The notes: generated by a model from the letters alone, not told the origin. A stretch of DNA of 64,000 nt from Candidatus Omnitrophota bacterium (GCA_043808175.1 JAZDFE010000002.1:4906-68905); one strand, 5' to 3'; shown: positions 5,150-63,974, counted from the stretch's first letter. Numbers and translations are program-made.

Positions 5150-6301
5150 CTATTGATGCGCATTGCCCACCGCATGTTGCCCTTGAAGATCGGGCTGTAC
5201 ATCTTTGACGGGCACGCCGGAACTCAATCCCATTTGCCCGCTGGTGACTACCTTCTCGCCCGCCTTGACGCCATTTTCAACCACAATGTCGTCTCCCTGC
5301 CGGCTGCCGGTCCTGAGGATCCTGAGATCCGCTTTACCCTCCGGCGTTACGACAAAGGCAAAAGTTCCCTTTTGTCCCAACTGCGCAGCCGCGTACGGGA
5401 TCAGCACGGCACCCTTCTGGATCCCGAGGATTAGTTTCACATAAACGAATTGACCCGCCCACAAAGCATTATCTTCGTTGGGAACAATCGCCCTGAGAGA
5501 AATGGTCCCTGTTGTGTTGTCGATCGCATTCTCGATCAGTTTTAATTCTCCGGCATAGGACTTCCCGTCGTCCGGGACCCGGACTTCCGCTTTCAAAACA
5601 CCCGCGGCCATCGCGCTGCGGATCGCTTGAAGTTGCCGGTCCGTCACCGTGAAATCCACATAGAGCGTATCGATCGCCTTGACATTGGCAAGCGTCGGAC
5701 CGTTATTGGCCAGCACGATGTTCCCAGGGTCCACAAGAACTTTCCCGGTCACTCCATTCACAGGAGACTTGATGGAGCAATAATCCAGATTGATCTCGGC
5801 CAACACTAGTTCGGCCTTATCGAGAGTGGTCTTCGCTTCCGCCGCCTCAACATCCGTTTCATATTTCTCGAAATCCTGCTGGGACACAAGCTCTTTACTG
5901 GCAAGCCCGCGGTTCCGCTCCAGCGTATCCTTTTTCATTTTCATGTCGACGTTGTCCGCCTGCACGACCGCCTGGGCTTTGTCAACCGCGGCTTTATATT
6001 CCGAAGGATCTATGGTGAAAAGAAGATCCCCTGCCGCGACCCTTTGCCCTTGCTTAAAGTGTGCCTGAAGGACCTTGCCCGTGACTTGGGACTTGATGTC
6101 CACGTTGACAAGCGCCGCTAAATTCCCAAAAGCCTCGATATAGGAAGGGACATCCTTTTGGAGAGCGACGGAAGTTTGAACCGGCCGGGGCGGCATGGGG
6201 GGGATTTCCTTTTTCCCGGAGCATCCATTCCCCAGGATCAAGAAGAATACCGCGAAAACCCAACTCATTAGAACAGGAAACTTCGAAGGAAATGATCGCA
6301 T
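5150..6301 (-). CDS. RND efflux periplasmic adaptor (membrane fusion protein, HlyD/AcrA family)
   Basis: ORF 5150-6370 trimmed to the ATG at 6301, which has an upstream AGGAG. Lipoprotein-like N-terminus ...FFLILGNGC. Alpha-hairpin and beta-barrel regions typical of MFPs. Confidence 0.88.
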   Translation of the reverse strand: MRSFPSKFPVLMSWVFAVFFLILGNGCSGKKEIPPMPPRPVQTSVALQKDVPSYIEAFGNLAALVNVDIKSQVTGKVLQAHFKQGQRVAAGDLLFTIDPSEYKAAVDKAQAVVQADNVDMKMKKDTLERNRGLASKELVSQQDFEKYETDVEAAEAKTTLDKAELVLAEINLDYCSIKSPVNGVTGKVLVDPGNIVLANNGPTLANVKAIDTLYVDFTVTDRQLQAIRSAMAAGVLKAEVRVPDDGKSYAGELKLIENAIDNTTGTISLRAIVPNEDNALWAGQFVYVKLILGIQKGAVLIPYAAAQLGQKGTFAFVVTPEGKADLRILRTGSRQGDDIVVENGVKAGEKVVTSGQMGLSSGVPVKDVQPDLQGQHAVGNAHQ

Positions 6302-6332
6302 TTTTTTGTTTCTCCTATCTTCTGGCGCTGAT

Positions 6333-21392: not shown

Positions 21393-21657
21393 CGGCGTAC
21401 TGGTTTATCATTTATTTAAAAAATAATAATGAAACTAGTACTGTCATGATTACCGTCCAAACTTTTCATTTCTTTTTCAAAACGGTAGTCGGCACTGATT
21501 TTCATTTAATTTTTAGATTGGAAATCAGTACAGTCCCAACCAACCCTTAAATGAATCGGAGGGTTGGGGCTGGACGGCCCCAATCTCAGCTATGCTTCGA
21601 TTGATAGGTATTGGGACCGTTTATTTTTTGATTGATGAAAATCATGGCGTACCGACC
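21393..21657. repeat. hairpin-module array (AT-loop family), modules in both orientations
   Basis: CTGGTTT..AAACTAGtactgtc; CTGATTTtcatttaat..AAATCAGtacagtc; CCCAACC..GGTTGGGgctggac; GGCCCCAAT..ATTGGGACC; inverted copy of the CCATGATTTTCAT module. Confidence 0.8.
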
Positions 21658-23829: not shown

Positions 23830-24106
23830 CGCCTGATTCTCCTATTAAGTTTTATAAAGAATCAGTGCAGCACCGACTTTCAATTAACTGCTCTTATCGA
23901 CAGTCGGTACGGCATCGTACTTGTTCACCGGCGCAAGTGCGGTCAGAGTACGAAGCTGATATTATGCTCCGACTCTGCCGTCCCAATACTTATCAATTTC
24001 TGCAAAGCAGAAATTGGGGCGGTCTTGGTTACCGTTGATCAAAAGAAAATTAAAACCAGGGCCGTACTTGTACACAGGTACAAGTGCCTACGGTACCGGT
24101 ACCGAT
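23830..24106. repeat. hairpin-module array (AT-loop family)
   Basis: The first two modules are identical to 20862-20942. Then come ACTTG..CAAGT, CAGAGT..ACTCTGccgtc, CCCAATACTTATCAATTTCTGC..GCAGAAATTGGGG, TGGTT..AACCAgggccgtac, ACTTGTACacagGTACAAGT and GGTACCGGTACC. Confidence 0.8.
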
Positions 24107-39844: not shown

Positions 39845-40798
39845 ATGTATCGGGAAAAAATTAAGGTATTAGATTGCACGATCCGCGACGGCGGCCTGAT
39901 GAATAACCACGACTTCGACGACCGCTTCGTCCGGGCGATCTACAAGGCGGTTTCCGAGGCCGGGATCGACTATATGGAGATCGGCTACAAGAACTCCAAA
40001 CGGCTTTTCCCGGGGGACAAATACGGCGCCTGGAAATTCTGCTCCGATGACGATATCCGGAAGGTCACGGAAGGGATCCCCTCCAAGACCAAGCTCTCCG
40101 TCATGGTGGACGTGGACCGTGTGGACCTTGAGGACATCAAGCCCAAAAAGGAAAGCCCCGTGAGCATGATCCGCACGGCGTGTTATGTCAAAGACGTCGA
40201 TAAAGCGATCTTTCTCGCCAATCATTTCGCGGACAAGGGTTACGAGACCGCGGTCAATCTCATGGCGATCTCCAAGGTGCTGGAGGTGGAGCTGAACGAA
40301 TGCCTGGCCCAGCTCGAGAAGGAATGCAAATGCAATGTGGTGTATCTGGTCGATTCGAACGGCGCGCTGTATCAGGAGACCGTGGAGTATCTGATCAAGA
40401 AAGCCAAGGGCATCATCAAGACCAAAGAGATCGGGCTTCACGCGCACAATAACCAGCAGCTGGCCTTCGGCAACACGATCGAGGCGATCATCCACAACGC
40501 GAACTACCTGGACAGCACGATCTTCGGGATGGGGCGGGCGGCCGGGAATTGCCCGACGGAGCTGCTCCTGGGTTTCCTGAAAAATCCGAAATTCGACATC
40601 CGTCCCATCCTGGACGTGATCTCCAAAGAGATGCTCCCCTTGAGCAAAAAGGTCGAATGGGGCTACGTGATCCCTTATGCCATCACCGGGATCCTGGATG
40701 AGCATCCCAAATCCGCGTTGGAGCTTCGCGAAAGCGACCGGAAAGATAATTTCCGCGAATTTTATGACAGTTTCGCGGGGAGCTCCGAGGTCGAATAA
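39845..40798 (+). CDS. HMGL-like / DRE-TIM metallolyase family aldolase (pyruvate carboxyltransferase domain)
   Basis: VLDCTIRDGG, IGLHAHNNQQLAFGNTIEAI, GMGRAAGNCPTELL. Confidence 0.75.
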   Translation: MYREKIKVLDCTIRDGGLMNNHDFDDRFVRAIYKAVSEAGIDYMEIGYKNSKRLFPGDKYGAWKFCSDDDIRKVTEGIPSKTKLSVMVDVDRVDLEDIKPKKESPVSMIRTACYVKDVDKAIFLANHFADKGYETAVNLMAISKVLEVELNECLAQLEKECKCNVVYLVDSNGALYQETVEYLIKKAKGIIKTKEIGLHAHNNQQLAFGNTIEAIIHNANYLDSTIFGMGRAAGNCPTELLLGFLKNPKFDIRPILDVISKEMLPLSKKVEWGYVIPYAITGILDEHPKSALELRESDRKDNFREFYDSFAGSSEVE

Positions 40799-40800
40799 GC

Positions 40801-41421
40801 GTGGATCTCCGCAAATTCCGTGAAAGGCCCGTCCTCGGGATCCTGCGCGGGATCACCCCTTCGCAGTTGGAGCCCCTCTTCGAATCGATCATCGCCGGCG
40901 GTCTTCGGGCCGTTGAGATCACGATGAACACCGAAGGCGCGACCGGACTTATCAAGAACGCGGTCCGGCGCTACGGTAAGCAACTGATGATCGGAGCCGG
41001 AACCGTTCTCACTTTGAAAGATCTCCAGGCTGCACTTCGCGCGGGCGCGACCTTCATCGTGAGCCCTGTCGTGGTCCCTCCCGTGATCGCATACTGCGCC
41101 AGGCACAAGATCCCCGTTTTCCCGGGAGCGCTGGCCCCTCGGGATATTTATGAAGCGTGGCGGGCCGGAGCGACGATGGTGAAGGTATTCCCCGCCGGCT
41201 GTTTCGGGCCGGATTATTTCAAAGAGATCAAAGGCCCGTTCCCCAAGATCGAGCTCCTGGCGTGCGGCGGGGTCACGCCTCAGAACCTGCCGGATTATTT
41301 TAAGAACGGCGCGAGTGCCGCCGCGGTAGGCTCGAGCGTCTTCCGCAAGGATTGGCTCGCCGCAAAGAAATTCCACCTCATCCGCAACCAGATCCGCGCC
41401 TACCTCAAAGCACTCCCCTAA
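40801..41421 (+). CDS. eda: KDPG / 4-hydroxy-2-oxoglutarate aldolase
   Basis: GTG start 2 nt after the previous stop. VLGILRG, RAVEITMNT, GAGTVL, VKVFPA (Schiff-base Lys), GGV. Confidence 0.82.
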   Translation: MDLRKFRERPVLGILRGITPSQLEPLFESIIAGGLRAVEITMNTEGATGLIKNAVRRYGKQLMIGAGTVLTLKDLQAALRAGATFIVSPVVVPPVIAYCARHKIPVFPGALAPRDIYEAWRAGATMVKVFPAGCFGPDYFKEIKGPFPKIELLACGGVTPQNLPDYFKNGASAAAVGSSVFRKDWLAAKKFHLIRNQIRAYLKALP

Positions 41422-41476
41422 AAAGCGATCCGACGGAATTTCTTGCGAATCCGGAAGCACGCTCCGCAGGTCGAGC

Positions 41477-41637
41477 GGGCATGGTGTCAGCCAGGAGAGT
41501 GCCTTGCTTCGACACCGGCGGTTCCTCGTTTCCGGCGAACGATGACCGCCTGCGCTCTCGCGCTTCGCCTCGCTCAAAGCGAGACCAAGCTCGAAGCGCT
41601 CCGAGAGCTGCCTCCGGCAAGGCACTCTCCTGCTGAC
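41477..41637 (-). ncRNA. conserved multi-stem element, copy A (orientation given relative to copy B; transcribed strand unknown)
   Basis: A 21-bp closing helix (41486-41507 / 41617-41637) encloses the blocks CAGCTCTCGGAGC, GAGCTTGGT, GCGAGAGCGCAGGC and GCCGGTGT, which are shared with 55394-55552. The inner stems differ from copy B but stay complementary. Confidence 0.5.
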
Positions 41638-41645
41638 GAGCAAGA

Positions 41646-41833
41646 CCGGTCCCAATACTTATCAATTTCCACAGAGTGGAAATTGGGGCCGTCCTTGTCG
41701 ACCATTTGGGAAAAGAATGAAAGACAAGGGCGGAGGCGCGAGTGAGTTTTTCCACGCCGGGGAAAAACGAACGGTGCCGAAGGATCCGCAAGAAATTCCA
41801 CATTTTGTTCACTTGGAATCAGGGAATTGGGGG
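41646..41833. repeat. hairpin-module array abutting the uvrB stop codon
   Basis: GGTCCCAATACTTATCAATTTCCACagaGTGGAAATTGGGGCCGTCC; CTTGTC..GACAAGggcggag; further imperfect modules. Confidence 0.7.
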
Positions 41834-43936
41834 CTAGCGTTTTTTGCGGGGGATCCGGACGGATCTTTTGGGCGTGCCCTTTTGGGGCGCGCCTTCCCCT
41901 TCGATCCGGCGGATCTCGTCGCGATAACGGGCGGCCTTGTCGAACTCCAGCGCCCGCGCGCAAGCTTCCATCCGGGTCTTGAGGAACGCGAGATAGTTCT
42001 TGGTCTCGTATGCTTTTCCGGATTCATGGACCACGTCATGGACGAACTCTTCGGCCTTTTTCCATTGTTCGATCCCGTCCTTGATCTCTTTCTGGATCGA
42101 GACCGGGGTGATCTTGTGCGCCGTATTGTAGTCCGCCTGGATCTTACGGCGGCGCGCGGTCTCATCGATCGCCCGCTTCATGGAATCCGTGACTTTGTCC
42201 CCGTACATGAGGACCCTGCCGTTGACGTGACGTGCCGCCCGGCCCGCGGTCTGGATGAGCGAAACGTCGCTCCGGAGGAAACCTTCCTTGTCCGCGTCGA
42301 GCACGACCACGAGCGACACTTCCGGGAGGTCCAGACCTTCGCGCAAAAGGTTCACGCCGATCACGCAGTCGTATTTCTTGAGACGGAAATCGCGGAGGAT
42401 CTCCACCCTCTCGAACGCGTCGAACTCCGAGTGAATGTAATGCGCCTTGATCCCGAGCTCCTTCAGGTACCGGCTGAGATCTTCGGCCATCTTTTTGGTC
42501 AGCGTCGTGACGATCGTCCGTTCCCCTTTCTTCTCCCGCGCCTTCACCTCGCCGATCAGATCGTCGATCTGTCCTTCGGTCTTCCGGACCTCGATCTGGG
42601 GGTCCATCAACCCCGTCGGGCGGATGACCTGCTCCGTCACTTCTTTCACGCGGCCCATCTCGTAAGGCCCCGGCGTCGCGGAGACATAAAGACACTGCTT
42701 CAACTTGGCCTCGAATTCCGGCCATCGGAGCGGCCGGTTATCCAGCGCGGAAGGCAGGCGGAACCCGTGGTCGACCAGGACCTTTTTCCGTGAAGCATCG
42801 CCGTTGAACATGCCGCGGATCTGCGGCACGCTTTGGTGCGACTCGTCGATGATGACGAGAAAATCCTTCGGGAAATAATCCATGAGCGTGTAAGGTGTGG
42901 AGCCGGGAGCGCGTCCGGAAAGATGACGGGAGTAATTCTCGACGCCGGAGCAATAGCCGACCTCCTTCAGCATCTCAAGGTCATATTGCGTACGCGACTC
43001 CAGGCGCTTGGCCTCAAGGTCCTTGCCTTCGGAAGCGAGTTTCTTGACGTGTTCTTTCATTTCTTGCTCGATCGATACGATCGCGGCCTCGAGCCTTTCG
43101 CCCGGGGTCACGAAATGTTTCGCGGGATAGATCGCGAGTTTTTCGACCTCCCGGAGTGCGGTCAATTTCACGGGGTCGAGAAGCGCGATCCGTTCGATCG
43201 CCTCGGGACCGCCCAAACTTTTCATTTCTTTTCCAGAGTGGTAGTTTGGACGGCCCCAATCTCCGCTTTGCTTCGATTGATCGATATTGGGACCGAAATC
43301 GATGCGGTAAGGATTCTGTCCGTACGACGGAAGGAGGTCGATCCTGCCGCCGCGTACGCGGAACGTTCCCCGCCGGAGCTCGGTCTCCTCCCTTTCATAT
43401 TGAAGGCTGATCAGGCTTGAGAGGAATTTGTCGCGGTCCGCGGCCTCGCCTTTGGCGATCGTGATGAGAAGTCCCTGCCAGTCCTCCGGCGCGCCGAGGC
43501 CGTAGATGCAGGAAACGCTTGAGACGATGATACAGTCCTTGCGCGAAAGGATGGAGCTGGTCGCGGAAAGACGCAGCCGGTCGAGGTCTTCGTTGATCGA
43601 GGCGTCTTTTTCGATGTAGGTGTCCGTGTGCGGGATGTACGCCTCCGGCTGGTAATAATCGTAATAGGACACGAAGTATTCGACGGCGTTCTCGGGGAAG
43701 AATTCCTTGAGCTCCGAATAAAGTTGCGCGGCGAGGGTCTTGTTGTGGGAGATCAAAAGCGTGGGGAGCCCGAGCCGGGCGATCACGTGCGCCATGGTGA
43801 ACGTCTTTCCCGAGCCCGTCACCCCCCGAAGGACCTGTTCCTTTTCCCCGGCCAGGAAACCCTCTACCAGCTTTTCGATCGCCTGCGGCTGATCGCCCTT
43901 CGGCTTCATGGAGGAAACCAATCTGAACCCGCTCAT
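41834..43936 (-). CDS. uvrB: excinuclease ABC subunit B
   Basis: 700 aa. Walker A GVTGSGKT, helicase motifs (DESH, ...), C-terminal UVR motif LEFDKAARYRDEI. It carries a 28-aa repeat-derived insertion. Confidence 0.95.
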   Translation of the reverse strand: MSGFRLVSSMKPKGDQPQAIEKLVEGFLAGEKEQVLRGVTGSGKTFTMAHVIARLGLPTLLISHNKTLAAQLYSELKEFFPENAVEYFVSYYDYYQPEAYIPHTDTYIEKDASINEDLDRLRLSATSSILSRKDCIIVSSVSCIYGLGAPEDWQGLLITIAKGEAADRDKFLSSLISLQYEREETELRRGTFRVRGGRIDLLPSYGQNPYRIDFGPNIDQSKQSGDWGRPNYHSGKEMKSLGGPEAIERIALLDPVKLTALREVEKLAIYPAKHFVTPGERLEAAIVSIEQEMKEHVKKLASEGKDLEAKRLESRTQYDLEMLKEVGYCSGVENYSRHLSGRAPGSTPYTLMDYFPKDFLVIIDESHQSVPQIRGMFNGDASRKKVLVDHGFRLPSALDNRPLRWPEFEAKLKQCLYVSATPGPYEMGRVKEVTEQVIRPTGLMDPQIEVRKTEGQIDDLIGEVKAREKKGERTIVTTLTKKMAEDLSRYLKELGIKAHYIHSEFDAFERVEILRDFRLKKYDCVIGVNLLREGLDLPEVSLVVVLDADKEGFLRSDVSLIQTAGRAARHVNGRVLMYGDKVTDSMKRAIDETARRRKIQADYNTAHKITPVSIQKEIKDGIEQWKKAEEFVHDVVHESGKAYETKNYLAFLKTRMEACARALEFDKAARYRDEIRRIEGEGAPQKGTPKRSVRIPRKKR
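43211..43296. repeat. two hairpin modules inserted in frame inside uvrB
   Basis: CCAAACTtttcatttcttttccagagtggtAGTTTGGacggc + CCCAATctccgctttgcttcgattgatcgatATTGGGaccg. Both have close relatives at 21456-21495 and 21580-21625. Confidence 0.8.
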
Positions 43937-55165: not shown

Positions 55166-55393
55166 GTGCCTCAACCCAATAGACTTGGGTGCATCCCCCT
55201 TCCGCTGTTTATTTGTCTCTTTATTGAGCCCTCCGTCGGGAAGTGTGTTTCGCCAACGTTCGCCATGCCCCGCCGAGGCATGACTTCACTCGCAAGCGTC
55301 GGCCTCGATGAAAAACCGTGGCTCTCGGCCTCCTTAGCGTGGCTCGCCGCACTTCCCGCCGTCGGCTCAAGAGAAGGCGAAAAGTTGAGATGA

Positions 55394-55552
55394 GGCAGGC
55401 AGGAATCGTAACGAGACAGCTCTCGGAGCTGATGGGAGCTTGGTTCCGTTCCTCATGAACGGATCCCATCAGCGAGAGCGCAGGCTGGCACTCGCCGCTG
55501 GAGCGAGTGAACAGCCGGTGTTGAGAGACGATTCCTGCCTGCCACCCTGCCC
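55394..55552 (+). ncRNA. conserved multi-stem element, copy B (transcribed strand unknown)
   Basis: 16-bp closing helix GGCAGGCAGGAATCGT / ACGATTCCTGCCTGCC. Nested hairpins CAGCTC-tcg-GAGCTG, CTGATGGGA...TCCCATCAG around TCCGTTC-ctcat-GAACGGA, and CACTCGC-cgctgga-GCGAGTG. It shares four sequence blocks with copy A. Confidence 0.5.
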
Positions 55553-55619: not shown

Positions 55620-58600
55620 TTAGGCTGCTACGGCGAAGGCGAGGGTGGCGTCGTAACTTCTCTGTAGGGCATTGACCAGGGACTCGGCAACGATCCAGAA
55701 CCCGTCCCGGCCCCGGCTTATTTCCCGAAGCCGCGCATCTTCCCCGCCGGACCACGCCCAAAGAAGCGCTGCCGCCAAGGTTCCGCCGTTTTGCCCCTGG
55801 GTCTTAAAGAAAGAGACCTTCTTCCTCAGACGTTGGACCAACTCCTGGGAGGGAAGGATCTTCTTTGAAAGATGAATGCTCGGCGCGCCCGGCCGGTCAA
55901 AGCTGATCTGCGACCCGGCAAGATCTCTGTCGGTCCTCGTCACGCGGTCCAGTTTAAGCAAAGCGCCAAGTTCTTTATCCTGCACCTGGCCGCGCTCGTT
56001 ATAGACCACGATCCGGACCCCCCGGCCGGAAAGAGCCGCGTAAAAATATTCGTTCTTCTGCGCCAGAGAAAGATTGGGGAAATCCTCGGCGTCCACGAAC
56101 ACCGTCGCAAGCTGCACGCTCTTGCGGATGGCTTTCACCATCTTGTCCTCACGCATCTCCGCCCGATTCTTCGGATCGGGACGGATCCGTCCTTCGCTTT
56201 GCAAAGGCGGATCGAAATGCTGGCTTTCGGCTTCGCTCAACGCCCTACGCTCAACACCCAACGTATTTTTTTCTTCCGTCCCCTGTTTCCCCTTCTCCGT
56301 TTCCCCGGATATTTTCCTCACCTCCGACCGCCCGACTGCGCCGGAACGTGGCACCTTGTCTGTGACAAACACGCGCTGTGCGGTCCAGTTAAGGGTGGCA
56401 CGGCGGTTCTCAGATTGAACAGAAACATCGGAAGATCTTTTCCAACCCGCCCACAATCTTTGTTTCAACGCTTCGAACGCGGTCCGGTCCCCAAAATAGT
56501 CCCGCATGAGATCAGGCATCGCATCATCCAGCGCGGCGCTCTTCGCTTTGATGAACCCCACGGGGCTGAATGCAACGGGCTGTGATTCTTTTTTATAAAT
56601 GAAGAACATGACAATGATATCGCGCCCATTCGCATCCAGAAAAGCGCTCTGAATAAACCACTGCCGTTCGGCTTCCAAGGATTCTGCCAATTGCAGGGCG
56701 GCATCCCGGAGAGCCTTGCTATCGCCGGACCGTAATGCAATATGGGGAACGGGATAGCCGGTTTTTCCGATCGAGACGTCCCCAGCCTCTTCTTCGGGAA
56801 CAAAACTACCGCGAAATTCTGCCATGGGAACGACTTCCGGAGGATACAGATGGAGATGCATATGCGGCACGAAAGCCTCCGAACGATGGAACTCCGTAAC
56901 GGCACCCGCGCGCACCCAGCCAAACTCGACGTCAAGGGCTTTTTCCGTGAGCCACTGTTTCTGCCATTTTTTTGTAACGATCAGCGAATCGAATTCCACT
57001 TTCGGATACGTGCCGGCCCTGACGAAATAATCTGGGTTGAAAGGATCCTGAAAATACTTTTCGGCACTTTCGGCGTCGTACGACTCTTTGTTATCAAACA
57101 AAGATTCTGCATCTCGATTCACACTGACCGCGGGCCGGGCATTCAGCTTCGGCAGAAGAAGTCTTTGAAATGGCCCGTATTTCCTCATTGGGACCAGGGC
57201 CGGATCATAAGCCAACGGTACCTTCCGGTCGTTCGTGACGGGCATTACGGCCGTTTGCGTTTGCTCCCAAAAAACACGGCTTTCATCGAATTTCTTCCAC
57301 CATGAACGCCTTAATTCCTCGACCAGATTCGTACCGGAAACCACCTTCTCTTCGACAACACTGCTTCGCGCCCCTTGAGAAATCTCCTTCCGCGGCGGAA
57401 CAGTCTCATTGTAAACGCTCGAAAGAACGACCGCCGCTTCTTGAGTAGAAAGCGGCAAGTTCGGACTGGGGAATGCTTGTTTGGACAATCGCGCATGAAA
57501 AGCGTTTAAGTAAGCCTTTGTGAGATCCCGTAACGTGACAGACAAGGCGAATCGTTCGTCGACAAAGCGTCTCCCGGCTTCCGCCATTCGATCCCTCTTT
57601 CCCTCATCGATCACGAGCTCACGGATCCTTTCCGCCAGTTCCTGGGGATCGCCTCTCCGGGTCACAAATCCCGTTTTACCGTTTTCCAAAGTTTCCGGAA
57701 GACCTCCGCCGTCCGAAACGATCACCGGTACACCGCTGGCTTGTCCCTCAATGGACACGATACCAAAAGGCTCGGAACCGAGGGTAGGATAAACTGCCAT
57801 GGAGGACAGGTCATACCAATCCCTCATACGCTCGCTCGGCTGGTCTTCCACGAATATCACGTCAACGCCCAACTGTCTTGCCAGTTGCCGCAAACGGAAA
57901 CGCTCCCGGGCTGCAGGATCCCTTTCCGGTCCGACGATCACCACAACGACCTTCGCGGCCAACCCGGGATCTTTCTTGATCAATGCCGCTACCGCCCGGA
58001 TCGTGACCTCCTGCCCCTTCCGGGGAGTGATCCGGCCGGGATGCAAAATAACCTTCCGGCCCTGTAAACCATATTGGTCCTTGAGTTTTTGAACGGCCCG
58101 GCGATCGTTTTCCGTCCTCGCGGCGCTGAAGTAGCTCATATCGGTCACGGGATAGAGCGTTCCGACGTTCTCGATCCCTAATCCGGAAAATACCTTTTCA
58201 TAAGCCTTGCTGCCCGTGACTGCGGTATCGGCATGACGGATCAGATAACGGACGCCTTCCGTGATCGGCCCTCCGTGAAAAAAGTATTGAGAAGCCACGG
58301 AAAACCGGTTCGCAAAAGAAAGCGCTTTTTGCATCATCTGAAAATGGGGCGTCGAACTGTTTAAGGCGATCAATTGGATGGGTTCGCGGGCATGGATCTT
58401 TTCAAGCGATCGCCCCACATGATCGGCTTGTTCTTGATCGCTTAAGACAGCGCCGGCCGCTGTCCTTGCGGGGATCCCGTGGAGCACAAGCCCATTGCCG
58501 GTCTTGAGATTCTTTAAGGAATTTTCCGTGGGTGCCGTTGCGAAATTCAAATAGAGCCAGTCAATGGTCAGGTTCTTCTCGGTCCGCAGCAGCGCCTTGA

Positions 58601-61600
58601 TCATATTGCTTTGATAAGTCTGTACCCCGCCTGTCGTGAGCTGCAGCGGGCAGAAAAAAACAAGATGCCTCACGCCCTGGGCGCTCAGGCCTTCGCCCGG
58701 GGCCCGCTGCGAAGGGATCGTGTTCAAGTCCACAAAAAAAGAGGCCCATGCCCGGACAAACCCTTGTTCCGGTTCTTCCACCGCCGTTCGCACCTCGGAT
58801 CGATTTCCGATTCCGTCAGTCAGTCTCTCTTTGTCCGGTCTATCCGGATCATTCGCATCCTCATCCCGCATCTCGGAACGGGCTTGGGAGCTCGCGGAAG
58901 ACCCCGACAACTGGCCCAGGATCTTCCATCCCGTCCGGCGAACGATCTCCGCCATCATTCCCGGACCCCAACTGTTCATCTCGGCATTATTAAGATCGAT
59001 GATCCTTCTGAAATCGTCTTGCTGCTCGGGACCGCGTCCGGGACCGATCTCCGAAGCATATAAACTCAGAAAGCCGGGGATCCTTGCCGCCAACACTTCA
59101 TCGCGATATTCCTTTTCGAACCCGCTTTCGCGGATCACTAATTCCTGATGTGGGCGAGGACCGTAAATCGTCATTTCCCCCTTCAGGATGTTCCAAAGTT
59201 GCGGAAGCTCATCGATCCCCGAATATTTCAAAAAAGATCCGAGGGGAAATTCGAACAACTTAATGGGCTCATTCTTTCGATCGAGGCTCCTCAATTCAAA
59301 GATCGTGAAGGGTTTCCCGCGAAATCCGACCCTCTTCTGTTGAAAAAGCCACGACATCTTCGGATTCGCGATCTTGATCAGAGGGATCAAAACCGCGAGC
59401 AATGCCATGGACGGGATCGCCGCGATCATGACCGTTGTCAGATCCAGCAGCCGCATCCAGGAAGAGGTTGGAGAAATCGCAAAAAAAGAACGGTTCTGTC
59501 CAAAATCTTGCCGCATCTCGGAGCGCGTGACGAATTTCTCATCTCCAGCAATACGATTCCTAGAGATGAACTCCATGGAGTTTCGAGCCGCCCTTTTTAT
59601 CTCTTTATATTCATCACCTTGTTTTGTGATTAACTCCTGCAGAATAGATCGCGGTGTATGAAGGTTGCAGCCTAACGCGAAGAGGATACCCAAAAGTGAA
59701 TGTTTACCACCATATTGAGTAGCATCAAGATGATAAATATTTTCTAAAACGGTGGAATACATGCTATTCCAGGCCAGAGCAAACAGGATAGGATAGCCAT
59801 CATCGCCTCTGGCGATGCCCGCTCTCAAAACCTCCAGTTGGTCTGCCCTAGCACTTTTCTTTTCCTTATCCCAGGCCTTGTTGAAAAGTTTCACCCAGTC
59901 ATGCCCTCGATTAAAGGCTTCCAAGGAAGCGCAAATCATTCTTTCCTTGATTTTCATCACATTCTTTTTATGAGCTTCAAGGCGTTTGAACACGGCCTCG
60001 CCTGATTGAAGCCCCAATTGTGGCGCTAATCGATCTGCAAAATCATGCGTGATAACGTCTCGCATATCCCTGCCTTTAAGAAACTCCTGGCCAGCTTGAG
60101 GATTTTCATGGTTTTTTTTGATTAATTGCTGAGGAGATTCGTCGCGAATTTTGTGTAGTGTTTCTCGGACGCGCAGAAAAAAGTCCAGAGCCAATTCGAG
60201 CTGTTCAAACTCGCTGGCACTGATCGTGCCATTCTTTCGCATGTTGTTCAGAACTTCGATCGAGCTCATGCCCAAGGAGCGGAAGGCGGTCTTGCCAATC
60301 ATGCAAATCGTAAGAATATCCCGCATCATTCCCCAGCCCTTTTTGATGCTCCTTAGATCTAGAGATTCAAGATTGCGATGCTCCCTCTCATAATCCCAGG
60401 CATCAAAAAAGATGCTGACAACAGCGATCGGATCTTTTTCGATATTAAAAAGAAATGGGTAATGGGGAGTCGCTTGTATTTGCGAATACAAGTTTGAGTC
60501 ACCGATTATAAAAGATAACTGTTTTGCTTTTTCAGCATCAAAGGGATTGCCCCTACATAACTCCTGGAATTCCTCCACCGTCCCCGTCCACGCGTCGATA
60601 TCGTTATATCCTCTTTCCTGTATAGCCGAGATAAATTGATCCCGAAACAATTGTTGATCGTCCTGTTTTGAATCAAAGACGATAAAAACATCAACGTCTG
60701 AATTATAGGTCATCTCCTCCCGGGCAACACTTCCCGCGCCAAGAAGAGCTATTTTTCGGCCTGCCCAAGCCGGATTTTTATATACCCCTTCAAAGGTTGC
60801 TCGACTGGCCTCAAGAAATCTTGCGGTATTAGCTTTGGCCACCGAAATCCCTGAAAAACTCGAATGATCAGTCACATTTGGCGCCAGCCCTTCCTTTTGT
60901 GGATTAGTCCGCATTTCGGAGCGAGATCCTTTGCTATCCTCTCCCTTCGGACGACGTCCGGTGTCGATGGTGATAAGGGATGATGGGTTGGGGTTCATTG
61001 CCTTATGAAATATTAATAGCGGGAGGTTGAATGCCTTATTGCTTTCTCTTGCAGCAGGCAGAATGACTGACATTAAACGCCCTTCCGCATCGACTAATTT
61101 AGCTGCCTCGATTTCATTAAAAAGTGCGGCCCTTTGCGCGACAAACTTCTCACCAGCAGCATCGATCGCTGCGTTAAGAGCACTGTCCCGCGAAGCTTCT
61201 GGAGCGCGTTCCGCCTCAAGATAGGAGTCGACGATCCCTTTTACAAAATCAAAATCAAGCTTCCTCAGTTTCAGAAGATAAGTGTCTATATTTTTGTCAT
61301 TGCTCAGCCCATTAAAGTTAAGCGCATTTAACCAACGCCACTTCAGAAGGCCATGAAGTATTTTGAATATTGCATTCAAGATATCTTGAATGATCTTAAC
61401 CGCTTCAACAACAACAGGCTGGGTAATCTTCCAATTAGAAACGCTAAAATAAAACCTCTTTTTGATCCGGCCAAGATATTTGATGGTCCCATCCGCCACT
61501 TTTTCCCAATTTTCGATGATCTTCTGGATTTCTGGGACGTTGGGATCCTGATAATTTGAGTCATAGGAAAGATTGTCCAGCTTCATCGGCCCGGTCGTCA

Positions 61601-63974
61601 ACGGCTCACCCTTGACCCTGATTTTGGCATACGGACTTCCTTGCTGAATGCGTAATGAACCAAAGAGGCGGGAATCGGTCTCGAAGAGCCTCGTCGTTCC
61701 TATGAACTCCAGGTTACGCGAAAGCGTCGGGATCGTGGCTTGGGGATCGATAAATATGAACCCCACCTCAAGATCGAATTCCCACCTTCTGACATTTTCA
61801 ATCGCTTTCCTGTTCTGCTCTACCGTCACTCCTTTCCCATAATGCCTTAATTGCTCTGGATCGCCAGACTCGATCCCTAGATAGAGTTTTTCCACGCCCG
61901 CACGCCGCAGCAGGCGAAATACTTTATCAACTCTTGCTTCCCTTCTCTTTGTTTCTTCCGGATCGTCACGGACGAAAGGAGCGACATTGTCGGCACGAAC
62001 CGATACCTTTCTGATCGGAACCGGCTTTTTACCCATCGTTTTCCGCTTTTTATTGATCTCGATCATGTGATTCGCGAACTCTTCGACGCGATCCATCGAA
62101 TGTTCAAAATCTTCTTTTTCTTTAACGGGCCCAACAAATTCAGAATCCACGATGTAGAACGCTTTTGCCCCATTCTTGATCAACTTGTCAATTCGATCGA
62201 ATACCCACTTTAACGGAAAAGGCCGCCAAATAGCCCCAAAGCCGCCCTGGATCGAACAAAATGTGCAGTGTCCATACGGACAACCGCGGCTCGTTTCGAT
62301 GCCGTAGTATCCCGTTCCGTCATCCTGGAAGAGCTCGACAGCGTGTTCCTCCGTGATATCGGGATAATCTTCCAGATCCATGCCTTTTTGGGGTTTATTA
62401 AAAACCACCCTCTGGGAATCCGCATCCACGAACGCGACGCCGGGGATCTCCCGATAAAAAGTCATGTCCCGATATTCCGTATTGGATAGAGCTTTATCAT
62501 AAATTTTTTCCAAAGGCTCTTCTCCGTCACCCGCAACGGCGATGACCCCTCCGTAATCTTGCAATTCGTCTTGTTCCAAAAGTTCCCGATAGCCGAATGT
62601 GGGTAGCGTATTTCCCAGCACGATCAACGGCCGGTCATCGCCCATCTCTTTGAACTTTTTCACCAAATAATTTAAGACTACCAGCGAACCCCACTTGGCC
62701 GAAAGACCTACCACGCGCGGTCTTTTTTCTTTGATCTCTTTAAAGATCGCATCATACAGATCATTCCATTGCTGCTCAGTCCATTCACCCTTCCGACCGG
62801 GAGCTTTCTTTTCCCATTCACGCAGGCGCTGATTCATATCAACAATGGATACCGACGCAGCCGGGATCTTAACCCGCATATAGGCCGCCAGCGTTTCGAC
62901 CGCAAGAGGCTCTTGCCAGCGTTCTTTATATTTTGGCGCAATGAGATTCACCAACACCAAATCCGAAGTAGTAGTTCGATGTCCAAGTATGAATCGGATC
63001 TTATCCCGCACTTCAGAGCGACGATTATCTCGATAAACCTCGGCGGCGGGAAAGGTCATAACATTGAGCGTGAGACGCTGTTCGATCAGGGGCGTCGCGG
63101 AGTGAACGCCGAGGGCTTCCACCGAAGACGCGATCGCGCGGAGTTCGGTGCGGGTGGAAGCGGCATCTCCCTGCATGGTTTTTTCAGGTTCAACGTATTG
63201 CAGCATTCCACCCCGCCCTTTACGGAACCAGTAAGGATCTTTGGCCGCAAGAGCCGCCACAGCTGCTCGGTCGGCCCCTATGACCGTATCGCTTTTTACG
63301 GTTCTCCTGATGACTACAGGGGTGTCGCTTCGTATCACACGATTCATCGCCTGATCGATGCCCCAACGACGATTCCCGGTCACCAGGCGATAATTCCAAT
63401 CCCCATTGACGAAGATCAAATCCGAACGGTCTTTCAAACTTCCGGGCTTTTTATCATAGGTCATCCCTGAGGTGGAGAATGGGTCGGTGGAAACGACGAG
63501 CTTCGCTTCCTGTTTCAGGGCTTCCAGCCGGTGCCCCAATCGGGATATCTTTTCATCGGGAGATGCTTTCAATTGTGCGAGAGTATCGTCGACATCTTTT
63601 TGCGTTGTATCACTGACCAAGAATGGGTAATTTCTGACATTGAAAATGACCCGTTCAACGAGGCTGCTGTCCAATAAATACTGCGCCAACCAAAGATCAG
63701 ACACGATCTCGGGACCGACGTTATCCGTGTCCAATTCCAGGGTCTTGACCGAACGGCTTTGAAATTTTCTTATGATCGCTTCCCGGTGGTCGATCAAATA
63801 ATTCCGCTTTGAGTCAGGATCGATCGGGTTCGAGGGATCATAATTGTTGGACCAAAGACCCGCATCAAGCAGGAACGATAATCGATCGGCGGTTCCTGAT
63901 TTTACAAATCGAGCCATCAAATCCGGCAGCCCCTTGGGGGAGGTAAGAAACTCGTTTAAAGCTTGTTGTTTCAT
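55620..63974 (-). CDS. 2,784-aa multi-module fusion protein: DUF89/ARMT1-like phosphatase - B12-binding/radical SAM - GlnE-like nucleotidyltransferase - phosphoglycosyl (polyprenyl-P sugar) transferase - GT4 glycosyltransferase - HIT-like - unknown C-terminal module
   Basis: Uninterrupted ORF. Motifs in order: DTDNVGPE / NGDWNYRL; SRGCPYGHCTFCS; GSVAREEMTYNSDVDVFIVF and DLRSIKKGWGMMRDI; QQKRVGFRGKPFTIFELRSL and DELPQLWNILKGEMTIYGPRP; EPFGIVSIEGQASGVPVIVSDGGGLPE; VPHMHLHLYP. Confidence 0.85.
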   Translation of the reverse strand: MKQQALNEFLTSPKGLPDLMARFVKSGTADRLSFLLDAGLWSNNYDPSNPIDPDSKRNYLIDHREAIIRKFQSRSVKTLELDTDNVGPEIVSDLWLAQYLLDSSLVERVIFNVRNYPFLVSDTTQKDVDDTLAQLKASPDEKISRLGHRLEALKQEAKLVVSTDPFSTSGMTYDKKPGSLKDRSDLIFVNGDWNYRLVTGNRRWGIDQAMNRVIRSDTPVVIRRTVKSDTVIGADRAAVAALAAKDPYWFRKGRGGMLQYVEPEKTMQGDAASTRTELRAIASSVEALGVHSATPLIEQRLTLNVMTFPAAEVYRDNRRSEVRDKIRFILGHRTTTSDLVLVNLIAPKYKERWQEPLAVETLAAYMRVKIPAASVSIVDMNQRLREWEKKAPGRKGEWTEQQWNDLYDAIFKEIKEKRPRVVGLSAKWGSLVVLNYLVKKFKEMGDDRPLIVLGNTLPTFGYRELLEQDELQDYGGVIAVAGDGEEPLEKIYDKALSNTEYRDMTFYREIPGVAFVDADSQRVVFNKPQKGMDLEDYPDITEEHAVELFQDDGTGYYGIETSRGCPYGHCTFCSIQGGFGAIWRPFPLKWVFDRIDKLIKNGAKAFYIVDSEFVGPVKEKEDFEHSMDRVEEFANHMIEINKKRKTMGKKPVPIRKVSVRADNVAPFVRDDPEETKRREARVDKVFRLLRRAGVEKLYLGIESGDPEQLRHYGKGVTVEQNRKAIENVRRWEFDLEVGFIFIDPQATIPTLSRNLEFIGTTRLFETDSRLFGSLRIQQGSPYAKIRVKGEPLTTGPMKLDNLSYDSNYQDPNVPEIQKIIENWEKVADGTIKYLGRIKKRFYFSVSNWKITQPVVVEAVKIIQDILNAIFKILHGLLKWRWLNALNFNGLSNDKNIDTYLLKLRKLDFDFVKGIVDSYLEAERAPEASRDSALNAAIDAAGEKFVAQRAALFNEIEAAKLVDAEGRLMSVILPAARESNKAFNLPLLIFHKAMNPNPSSLITIDTGRRPKGEDSKGSRSEMRTNPQKEGLAPNVTDHSSFSGISVAKANTARFLEASRATFEGVYKNPAWAGRKIALLGAGSVAREEMTYNSDVDVFIVFDSKQDDQQLFRDQFISAIQERGYNDIDAWTGTVEEFQELCRGNPFDAEKAKQLSFIIGDSNLYSQIQATPHYPFLFNIEKDPIAVVSIFFDAWDYEREHRNLESLDLRSIKKGWGMMRDILTICMIGKTAFRSLGMSSIEVLNNMRKNGTISASEFEQLELALDFFLRVRETLHKIRDESPQQLIKKNHENPQAGQEFLKGRDMRDVITHDFADRLAPQLGLQSGEAVFKRLEAHKKNVMKIKERMICASLEAFNRGHDWVKLFNKAWDKEKKSARADQLEVLRAGIARGDDGYPILFALAWNSMYSTVLENIYHLDATQYGGKHSLLGILFALGCNLHTPRSILQELITKQGDEYKEIKRAARNSMEFISRNRIAGDEKFVTRSEMRQDFGQNRSFFAISPTSSWMRLLDLTTVMIAAIPSMALLAVLIPLIKIANPKMSWLFQQKRVGFRGKPFTIFELRSLDRKNEPIKLFEFPLGSFLKYSGIDELPQLWNILKGEMTIYGPRPHQELVIRESGFEKEYRDEVLAARIPGFLSLYASEIGPGRGPEQQDDFRRIIDLNNAEMNSWGPGMMAEIVRRTGWKILGQLSGSSASSQARSEMRDEDANDPDRPDKERLTDGIGNRSEVRTAVEEPEQGFVRAWASFFVDLNTIPSQRAPGEGLSAQGVRHLVFFCPLQLTTGGVQTYQSNMIKALLRTEKNLTIDWLYLNFATAPTENSLKNLKTGNGLVLHGIPARTAAGAVLSDQEQADHVGRSLEKIHAREPIQLIALNSSTPHFQMMQKALSFANRFSVASQYFFHGGPITEGVRYLIRHADTAVTGSKAYEKVFSGLGIENVGTLYPVTDMSYFSAARTENDRRAVQKLKDQYGLQGRKVILHPGRITPRKGQEVTIRAVAALIKKDPGLAAKVVVVIVGPERDPAARERFRLRQLARQLGVDVIFVEDQPSERMRDWYDLSSMAVYPTLGSEPFGIVSIEGQASGVPVIVSDGGGLPETLENGKTGFVTRRGDPQELAERIRELVIDEGKRDRMAEAGRRFVDERFALSVTLRDLTKAYLNAFHARLSKQAFPSPNLPLSTQEAAVVLSSVYNETVPPRKEISQGARSSVVEEKVVSGTNLVEELRRSWWKKFDESRVFWEQTQTAVMPVTNDRKVPLAYDPALVPMRKYGPFQRLLLPKLNARPAVSVNRDAESLFDNKESYDAESAEKYFQDPFNPDYFVRAGTYPKVEFDSLIVTKKWQKQWLTEKALDVEFGWVRAGAVTEFHRSEAFVPHMHLHLYPPEVVPMAEFRGSFVPEEEAGDVSIGKTGYPVPHIALRSGDSKALRDAALQLAESLEAERQWFIQSAFLDANGRDIIVMFFIYKKESQPVAFSPVGFIKAKSAALDDAMPDLMRDYFGDRTAFEALKQRLWAGWKRSSDVSVQSENRRATLNWTAQRVFVTDKVPRSGAVGRSEVRKISGETEKGKQGTEEKNTLGVERRALSEAESQHFDPPLQSEGRIRPDPKNRAEMREDKMVKAIRKSVQLATVFVDAEDFPNLSLAQKNEYFYAALSGRGVRIVVYNERGQVQDKELGALLKLDRVTRTDRDLAGSQISFDRPGAPSIHLSKKILPSQELVQRLRKKVSFFKTQGQNGGTLAAALLWAWSGGEDARLREISRGRDGFWIVAESLVNALQRSYDATLAFAVAA

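Follow-up and report, generated by a model that had tools for sequence, protein, structure and literature searches.

The 64-kb window analysed here, which is the whole stretch of Omnitrophota DNA (64,000 nucleotides), contains eda on the plus strand and uvrB on the minus strand, and these genes converge on a gap that holds a complete, stem-closed unit of 365 bp (41435-41799). A preliminary description had placed a multi-stem element, copy A, in this convergent gap at 41477-41637; Pfam matches to both genes bear out the location, and the core of the element was correctly recognised, but copy A is only the inner module of the larger unit. Three layers can be told apart in the latter: an outer member O on the minus strand, copy A nested in it on the plus strand, and an unrelated 85-nt MITE. 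The features referred to below are the following:

40801-41421, plus strand: eda (KDPG/KHG aldolase) coding sequence (Pfam PF01081, E = 5e-41).
41435-41452, no strand assigned: 5' arm of P0, the outermost closing stem of the composite (GGAATTTCTTGCGAATCC); inverted repeat I1.
41453-41485, minus strand: one half of outer element O (..GCACGCTCCGCAGGTCGAGCGGGCATGGT in plus-strand reading), with the GAGCGGGCAKGGTG junction that is kept in 29 composites.
41486-41507, plus strand: 5' arm of P1 of the inner element (inverted repeat, MFE fold, alignment to model R1).
41508-41616, plus strand: core of copy A, a three-way junction (MFE fold, R1 alignment, consensus structure, covariation).
41517-41523/41544-41550, plus strand: P2, in the core.
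41526-41531/41537-41542, plus strand: P2a hairpin with the conserved loop UCCNGCG, in the core.
41552-41567 pairing with 41592-41611, plus strand: P3/P3a, in the core.
41569-41574/41578-41583, plus strand: P3b hairpin, in the core.
41584-41590, plus strand: conserved unpaired ACCAAGC, in the core.
41617-41637, plus strand: 3' arm of P1 of the inner element (inverted repeat, MFE fold, R1 alignment).
41638-41649, minus strand: junction of outer element O (GAGCAAGACCGG), broken after CGG by the MITE, as comparison with uninterrupted copies indicates.
41650-41734, no strand assigned: MITE (TCCCAAT..CAATTTCCAC-AGA-GTGGAAATTG..GGGCGG) inserted in O, delimited by its other copies and by its absence from the composites of L010 and L043.
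41735-41781, minus strand: other half of outer element O, with hairpin 41746-41768 (loop CACGCCGGG; inverted repeat I10) and CGAACGGTGCCGAA.
41782-41799, no strand assigned: 3' arm of P0 (GGATCCGCAAGAAATTCC; inverted repeat and MFE fold).
41800-41833, no strand assigned: residual spacer ending in GGGAATTGGGGGC before CTAG, weakly assigned by its resemblance to the end of the MITE family.
41834-43936, minus strand: uvrB coding sequence (Pfam UvrB, UvrB_inter, Helicase_C, UVR).
55396-55542, minus strand: copy B, the second family member in the window (R1 133.7 bits).

The eda product is a 100% match to an NCBI MAG protein. Its stop codon, TAA, lies at 41419-41421, and the outermost stem P0 begins 13 nt further on; on the other side, 34 nt separate P0 from the stop of uvrB, which reads CTA on the plus strand (41834-41836). 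The two arms of P0 were found in an inverted-repeat scan (18 nt, 94% complementary) and close the MFE fold of 41432-41802, with a matching architecture across 29 composites; the folding energy of the whole composite is -185.1 kcal/mol (z = -8.1). The residual spacer towards uvrB carries one copy of direct repeat D7 (41678-41688 vs 41822-41832), and related segments are present in L010 and L105. When 41300-41950 was scanned with terminator and promoter consensus patterns, no terminator-like site and no promoter-like signal were found, so that eda is indeed without any other obvious terminator of the canonical kind. The element is free of stop codons and yields spurious ORFs of 94-297 aa (40762-41655, minus; 41352-41636, plus; 41405-41812, minus), which cross the eda/uvrB gap, run antisense to eda and mislead longest-ORF gene calling.

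The 21-bp inverted repeat that was said to bracket copy A is present: the arms at 41492-41507 and 41617-41632 are complementary over 16 nt at 100%, and this stem, P1, extends to 41486-41507/41617-41637 with one bulged C. The plus strand of 41477-41645 folds at -89.4 kcal/mol (z = -6.0), which is equalled by none of 200 shuffled sequences, and for the minus strand the value is -96.3 kcal/mol. R1, a covariance model derived from 86 relatives, matches copy A over its full length (model positions 1-144) with 118.7 bits (E = 6e-31); the copy has the P1-closed three-way junction, the UCCNGCG loop, the UGCGCUCUCG/CUCCGAGAG helix and the unpaired ACCAAGC. Besides copy A, the only match of R1 in the 64-kb window is copy B. 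A BLAST comparison of the gap with the window likewise recovers copy B, at about 55413-55552 and only on the minus strand; copy A read on the plus strand aligns only with copy B read on the minus strand, at 70-74% identity. The alignment contains the conserved blocks ACACCGGCNGTTC, GCCTGCGCTCTCGC, ACCAAGCTC and GCTCCGAGAGCTG, and the stems between them differ in sequence while pairing in both copies. A 2784-aa ORF on the minus strand (55620-63974) ends 77 nt upstream of copy B, which is thus in sense orientation to it; giant genes of this kind agree with an Omnitrophota origin of the window. Since the plus strand of A equals the minus strand of B, it is the 3' UTR of eda in which copy A stands in the B-equivalent orientation, the reverse of the earlier assignment to the uvrB 3' UTR. 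The outer layer of copy B is rearranged (55230-55400, minus strand, 3' of B): its 5' P0 arm (GGAAGCAATCCCAATGCG) is without a partner, and ~110 nt of extra sequence follow 3' of the copy together with a second module of the outer type, closed by GGGAAGTG/CACTTCCC.

That copies A and B are multi-stem and covarying had been concluded from these two; it holds across about 100 copies. A strict pattern drawn from the conserved blocks was searched in GTDB species genomes and returned at least 100 stretches. Among the matches listed, nearly all come from MAGs of Omnitrophota or Patescibacteria/CPR, several per MAG, the CPR groups being Saccharibacteria, Liptonbacteria, Wolfebacteria, Colwellbacteria, Jorgensenbacteria, Peregrinibacteria and others; the pattern matches in L033, L072 and L097 lie inside genes and were discarded as chance. 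R1 gave 114 matches in 713 kb of loci, some of which the pattern had missed. The consensus computed with RNAalifold from a MAFFT alignment of 89 copies is a three-way junction with compensatory changes at 38 of its 46 pairs. The unit is ~140 nt long: P1, a long closing stem of variable sequence, encloses P2 with P2a (UCCNGCG loop) and P3/P3a with P3b and the unpaired ACCAAGC, and it is the junction and loop nucleotides that are conserved. The stems of the family covary very strongly. In an alignment of 98 copies fitted to R1, the share of paired cells is 94.6%; it is 60.9% after shuffling and 40.5-43.8% after sliding the partners. Both sides have changed in 41 of 48 pairs. The independent MAFFT alignment of 89 copies shows the same picture.

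Close copies also differ by paired double substitutions in P1 (GAGAGTGC/GCACTCTC in the window, GAGGATGC/GCATCCTC in L010, GAGAATGC/GCATTCTC in L043), so that the 5' arm of copy A shows compensatory differences from its counterparts in L010 and L043. Such changes between very close copies, as well as the unusual perfection of the stems, are what quasipalindrome correction could produce, by template switching between the arms of inverted repeats; the covariation would then be unselected and the fold without function. This process would, however, leave unexplained why unpaired junction and loop nucleotides are conserved across two phyla, why helix lengths and three-way geometry are fixed in ~100 copies, and why mismatches are distributed asymmetrically between the strands, and we find it scarcely credible as an account of the family.

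Comparison with Rfam 15 at the gathering score gave only a tRNA in the 64-kb window and only tRNAs in 18 loci; at E <= 10, both strands of copy A, of copy B and of a CPR long form gave noise only (at most 19 bits, E >= 0.2). No description of this element was found in the literature, a MITE survey included, and the folded repeat family of Omnitrophota and CPR is apparently undescribed so far. Scanning viral contigs with the family gave no matches, and scanning metagenomes with the 3' end of eda gave one chance match in an unrelated gene. Exact look-ups of the UvrB and Eda of the window returned no record. With its ornate three-way junction, its conserved nucleotides at the junction, its very strong covariation and antisense loops rich in G, a trait of many functional RNAs, the element might be taken for an independent small RNA gene or ribozyme with its own promoter on either strand, acting in trans or cleaving itself. 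We consider this very improbable: the Rfam comparison returned no ribozyme or other RNA even at the relaxed threshold, -10-like boxes upstream of the copies show no positional peak in either orientation and there is none in the gap of the window, tens of copies with different stems occur per small genome, and the element can follow stop codons with zero spacer (L009) and is dispensable at the level of the locus.

Copies A and B are among 29 copies that share extra flanks and thereby form composites with common junctions. On the 5' side, the outermost variable stem P0 is followed by ..GAGCGGGCAKGGTG; on the 3' side, CGAGCGARGNCGAG.. leads to a small hairpin (loop CTCGCYGGG), a ..GAGCGGTAGCGAA-like sequence and then P0'. 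Read on the opposite strand, the weak matches of R1 (41-56 bits) consist of this outer layer with a short hairpin in place of P1 and the core. The divergent R1 matches are therefore the outer layer without a core, and the long form is a member O with a second member nested in it; the inner member occupies the position of O's terminal hairpin, in inverted orientation. The model orientation of O at eda/uvrB is the minus strand, so that O is co-oriented with uvrB, while copy A is co-oriented with eda. Assignment of 41453-41485 to O is further based on stand-alone O copies that match R1 on the opposite strand and on the alignment of composites with stand-alone copies. The O junction broken in the window is uninterrupted elsewhere (CGAGCAAGACCTGAGGCGCGAG in L043, CGAGCGAAGCCGAGCGCGCGAG in L002), and a segment homologous to 41735-41781 is present in all composites and in stand-alone O. 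What had been described as a free-standing element followed by a hairpin array is thus an element nested in a homologue on the opposite strand, which itself carries a MITE. The hairpins attributed to the array (41646-41833) do exist, at 41663-41685, 41689-41733 and 41746-41768, but they do not make up a single array: the first two belong to the inserted MITE, which accounts for about half of it, and the third belongs to the 3' half of O. A kissing-loop interaction between the P2a loop and the loop of the outer hairpin was also considered and dropped, as covariation was inconsistent in a check by eye.

The MITE is unrelated to the three-way-junction family and belongs to an Omnitrophota family of the form TCCCAAT..CAATTTCCAC-nnn-GTGGAAATTG..GGGCGG, which is found in loci L057, L061, L019, L093, L004, L055, L075, L068, L015 and L043. 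It is missing from the otherwise homologous composites of L010 and L043 and uses another O site in L105. CGG stands at both of its ends (41647-41649 and 41732-41734), and the same repeat is seen in all three insertions inspected; with this CGG duplication, the small MITE at eda/uvrB behaves classically. The sites of insertion are O (two different positions), the P2a loop of the core (L015, L068, L075) and a gene. Further copies lie in the window at 23980-24024, 21572-21617 and 43220-43295. The last of these is in frame within uvrB, on the minus strand, and the UvrB of the window has a 28-aa insertion (GPNIDQSKQSGDWGRPNYHSGKEMKSLG, aa 215-242) that is not in the 90%-identical ortholog of L010 and is located exactly where the Pfam UvrB_inter match breaks off.

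Comparison of orthologous loci bears on the origin of the composite. In L102 and L103, which share the TauE-HMGL-Eda-UvrB synteny and an Eda of 90% identity, the eda/uvrB gap is absent: the TAG of eda and the stop of uvrB overlap in the palindrome CTAG (1818-1821), leaving no intergenic DNA. The site is empty in these two and occupied in the window, L010, L104 and L105. L010 (Omnitrophota fen_1321) shares the gene order of the window, with identities of 96% for HMGL, 91% for Eda, 90% for UvrB and 88-93% for the flanks; between its eda and uvrB stands a close relative of the composite that points the other way and has no MITE. In L105 (Eda 87%) a 56-nt fragment of an L010-type copy is separated by a spacer from a complete window-type copy, which R1 scores at 118 bits. 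L104 resembles L105, but its contig stops within the core at 2046, which suggests that the repeats may break assemblies. A simple inversion between the window and L010 was rejected: the P0 arms differ and L105 retains remnants of both types, which argues for independent insertion or replacement. In L108, L109 and L110 the gap consists of 128-163 nt of unrelated DNA with no family member; in L109/L110 (1822-1984; Eda 83%) it contains a cluster of different hairpins, such as GTAGGGCAGGTTTAAACCTGCCCTAC and GATCCCCGCTTTCGCGGGGAT, without an R1 match.

Judged by these orthologous sequences, the eda/uvrB composite is an insertion, and since close relatives have no gap at all, neither eda nor uvrB needs it. 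The element is also not a fixed feature of the 3' UTR of either gene: relatives with 90%-identical Eda have no gap, and in others its content differs. P0 is likewise absent from the empty site, so the stems come with the element. That P1 might derive from a terminator hairpin already in place and split by the insertion was found to be a weak idea, as a perfect stem of at least 10 bp occurs at only ~2% of element-free gene ends and the outermost eda/uvrB stem is absent from the empty site. CTAG, CTAA or TTAG borders the inserted block on either side, which could be a target duplication or could reflect selection that keeps both stop codons; the CTAG/CTAA of the eda/uvrB site is the only duplication seen. 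Similar turnover is seen elsewhere: L021 and L048 have flanks that are 97% identical and a divergence that starts within the stop codon, one holding O(+) and S(-) and the other S(+) and another stem-bounded element. The latter, in L048 at 6140-6323, is ~180 nt long and closed by a long stem (GGGAACACTGCC ... GGCAGTGTTCCC); it has no R1 match and may belong to a further repeat family.

Gene context was determined from stop positions in place of naive longest-ORF calling, which was abandoned because the element itself makes ORFs. Stand-alone members adjoin the stop codons of ordinary genes, within about 20 nt and in sense orientation. Of the 75 stand-alone copies, 40 lie at most 160 nt downstream of the end of a co-oriented ORF that has 100 codons or more, and in 29 of these 40 the stop lies at -21 to +2 nt of the start of the R1 match, approximately the base of P1; a converging ORF ends equally near the 3' side in only 7. 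The upstream ORFs are housekeeping genes (gyrB, EF-G, aminoacyl-tRNA synthetases, clpP, groEL, comEC), and for 47 of them, in 8-kb loci, no transposase family is among the best 25 of 75 matched families. In L009 (743-883) a stand-alone member fills a convergent gap exactly, with stops at 742 and 884 and zero spacer. In composites, 51-152 nt separate the co-oriented stop from the core that follows, and at the short end of this range the stop is at the edge of P0; 12 of the 29 composites are located between convergent genes.

A sense orientation, 0-20 nt from stop codons and often intercistronic (the next start codon being 10-46 nt away), is also what one would look for in a host-beneficial, cis-acting RNA of 3' UTRs, whether a factor-dependent terminator or insulator, a block to 3'-exonucleases or a platform for protein loading, whose copies would have spread and been kept by selection. 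The eda/uvrB gap without canonical terminators would fit such a function, as would the unpaired nucleotides conserved across phyla and the excess of C over G that is specific to the element on its sense strand; loops rich in C and poor in G would lend themselves to Rho or to some other protein that binds C. On the other hand, the element is dispensable at eda/uvrB, where close relatives have no gap, and orthologous sites hold other members or orientations. A U-tract (5 or more T among the 8 nt that come next to the stem) follows only 7 of 61 copies in sense and 6 of 61 in antisense, G.U pairs are under-represented relative to A.C on the sense strand, and inverted self-nesting has no obvious regulatory logic. 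We therefore see a 3'-UTR function as possible but not probable.

The two strands of the element are not equivalent. Position relative to genes points to the sense strand, yet this strand contains 125 A.C mismatches against 60 G.U, and it is C-rich (50.4 C vs 38.9 G per copy) on a flat flanking background; the antisense strand folds better in 93 of 103 copies, with an average advantage of 7 kcal/mol. The antisense single strand, as DNA or RNA, may thus be the selected folder, or pressure for C-rich loops in sense may have produced its better folding incidentally. By analogy with attC sites and with IS200/IS605 and REP hairpins, the element might be a site that a recombinase or HUH enzyme recognises as folded single-stranded DNA; the active strand would be the bottom one, which is antisense to the upstream gene. 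It would resemble attC as a ~140-nt imperfect palindrome directly 3' of a co-oriented ORF with variable stems and a conserved fold; the antisense reading of 125 G.T against 60 A.C and the better folding would agree with this, as would the polymorphism of presence and orientation and the absence of TIRs and a consistent TSD. Against it, there are no core sites of the RYYYAAC/GTTRRRY type, the neighbours are housekeeping genes and not cassettes, neither GTAG/CGTC tags nor a conserved 5' target motif are present, and the strand asymmetry could merely reflect the C-rich composition of the sense strand. On this analogy, a single-stranded DNA site seems quite unlikely. A 3'-UTR function, an attC-like site and an RNA gene or ribozyme are accordingly all possible, with a probability that decreases in this order.

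The closing stem evolves differently from the core. L007 and L020 have near-identical cores in one MAG and unrelated P1 stems, and simple copying followed by drift fails to account for the same core with an unrelated P1. We infer that P1 could turn over by gene conversion between cores or by template-switch correction of the arms. The arms are not guides to other loci, as they match only the orthologous or paralogous P1 of related copies.

Several known systems invite comparison. On the best-supported reading, the family is nearest in behaviour to REPINs, ERIC, Correia elements and MITEs. REP/BIME and REPIN-RAYT systems are those of E. coli and Pseudomonas (bioRxiv 10.1101/2021.07.10.451892; PMC3733652). 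Like REPs and REPINs, the present repeats are non-coding, multi-copy and hairpin-forming, lie in the 3' regions of genes and between convergent genes, are probably co-transcribed, often occur as inverted pairs without classical TIRs or TSDs, and have a fold that outweighs the sequence of the stem. REPs, however, are simple palindromes of 20-40 nt, tagged with GTAG/CGTC and species-specific, whereas this family is ~140 nt long, has a conserved three-way junction, is common to two phyla and is without such tags, which occur near the ends of 1-6 of 104 copies, where chance alone would give ~4.5. ERIC/IRU, Correia (NEMIS) and MITE sequences are alike in being imperfect palindromes of 100-170 bp in transcribed intergenic sites that fold in the mRNA, are polymorphic in presence between strains and are sometimes nested or intragenic; theirs are conserved terminal inverted repeats and a defined TSD (e.g. 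TA), while the terminal stem of this family varies in sequence between copies, even within one MAG, and there is no consistent TSD. Presence/absence at orthologous sites, as in MITEs, is thus found for the family, and shared terminal inverted repeats are not. The attC sites (e.g. the Vibrio cholerae repeats) share the length, the imperfect palindrome with variable stems and a branched centre, the co-oriented placement directly after a stop codon and, as a hint, the better-folding bottom strand; they differ in that the foot of their stem carries R''/R' core sites (RYYYAAC ... GTTRRRY), the stem bases of the family being variable and without such a motif, and in forming arrays of promoterless cassettes next to an intI integrase, as opposed to neighbouring dispersed housekeeping genes. 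PATEs of IS200/IS605 also have no TIRs or TSD, act as folded single strands and insert strand-specifically, but the family has no conserved 5' target tetranucleotide and no Rfam match to an IS605-type RNA, and neither TnpA nor TnpB was seen in the vicinity; stand-alone copies have neither flanking direct repeats nor a conserved flank motif, nor any conserved position in the 10 nt 5' of P1. Intrinsic terminators, including bidirectional ones, are similar as stable stems directly after stops, also between convergent genes, yet about 90% of copies have no U-tract on either strand, and the stem closes a 110-nt branched core and not a small loop.

Taken together, the observation of copy A is confirmed and its earlier interpretation is supported in part. 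We lean towards the view, with some reserve, that the nested insertion in which copy A forms the inner module comes from a family of non-autonomous, mobile or recombining, selfish structured repeats of the REPIN/ERIC/Correia/MITE kind, which are co-transcribed in 3' UTRs and required by neither eda nor uvrB. The best-supported reading of the family as a whole is that it is selfish or semi-domesticated and turns over quickly. The element would fold as a single strand, of DNA or RNA, in order to be copied or moved by a putative trans-acting enzyme, and the fold would be conserved because this single-stranded form must be recognised. Copies would persist just 3' of stop codons because these are among the few harmless places in compact genomes. 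At eda/uvrB, copy A would be co-transcribed as the 3' UTR of eda and the outer layer as that of uvrB, and the long stems may act as 3' hairpins in a gap without a canonical terminator. REPIN systems include a RAYT gene (Y1 HUH), which is single-copy and lies between repeats in the genome they share. Against the selfish reading, the loci examined yielded neither a gene for mobilisation nor conserved terminal repeats, and no target-site duplication that recurs consistently; the conflict in the strand evidence and the unrelated P1 stems around near-identical cores also speak against it. The conservation of junction and loop nucleotides in two phyla exceeds what is usual for REPs and MITEs and would also fit a host function.

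We further speculate that the core is itself the active module, either as a new ribozyme or as a recombination site of folded DNA that some conserved enzyme of ultra-small bacteria recognises; it would install copies precisely at stop codons and in the hairpins of its own relatives. We think this unlikely; if true, it would be a new class of structured replicator that targets stop codons across phyla, and the variable stems of 17-24 bp might carry its specificity.

The genomes of CPR and Omnitrophota are small and densely packed, and selfish DNA is expected to be rare in them. Even so, the family occurs in many copies, with covariation comparable to that of rRNA. It is unusual for its ornate core conserved across phyla, placement at stop codons and inverted self-nesting. 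In practical terms, the element may break assemblies, creates spurious ORFs and should be masked in searches for structured RNAs, and the covariance model R1 is now available for annotating it. If the family is selfish, it would be an unusually ornate and long-lived non-autonomous element whose mobilising enzyme is worth finding; if it has been domesticated, it would be a candidate for a general 3'-end module in genomes where recognisable terminators are few.
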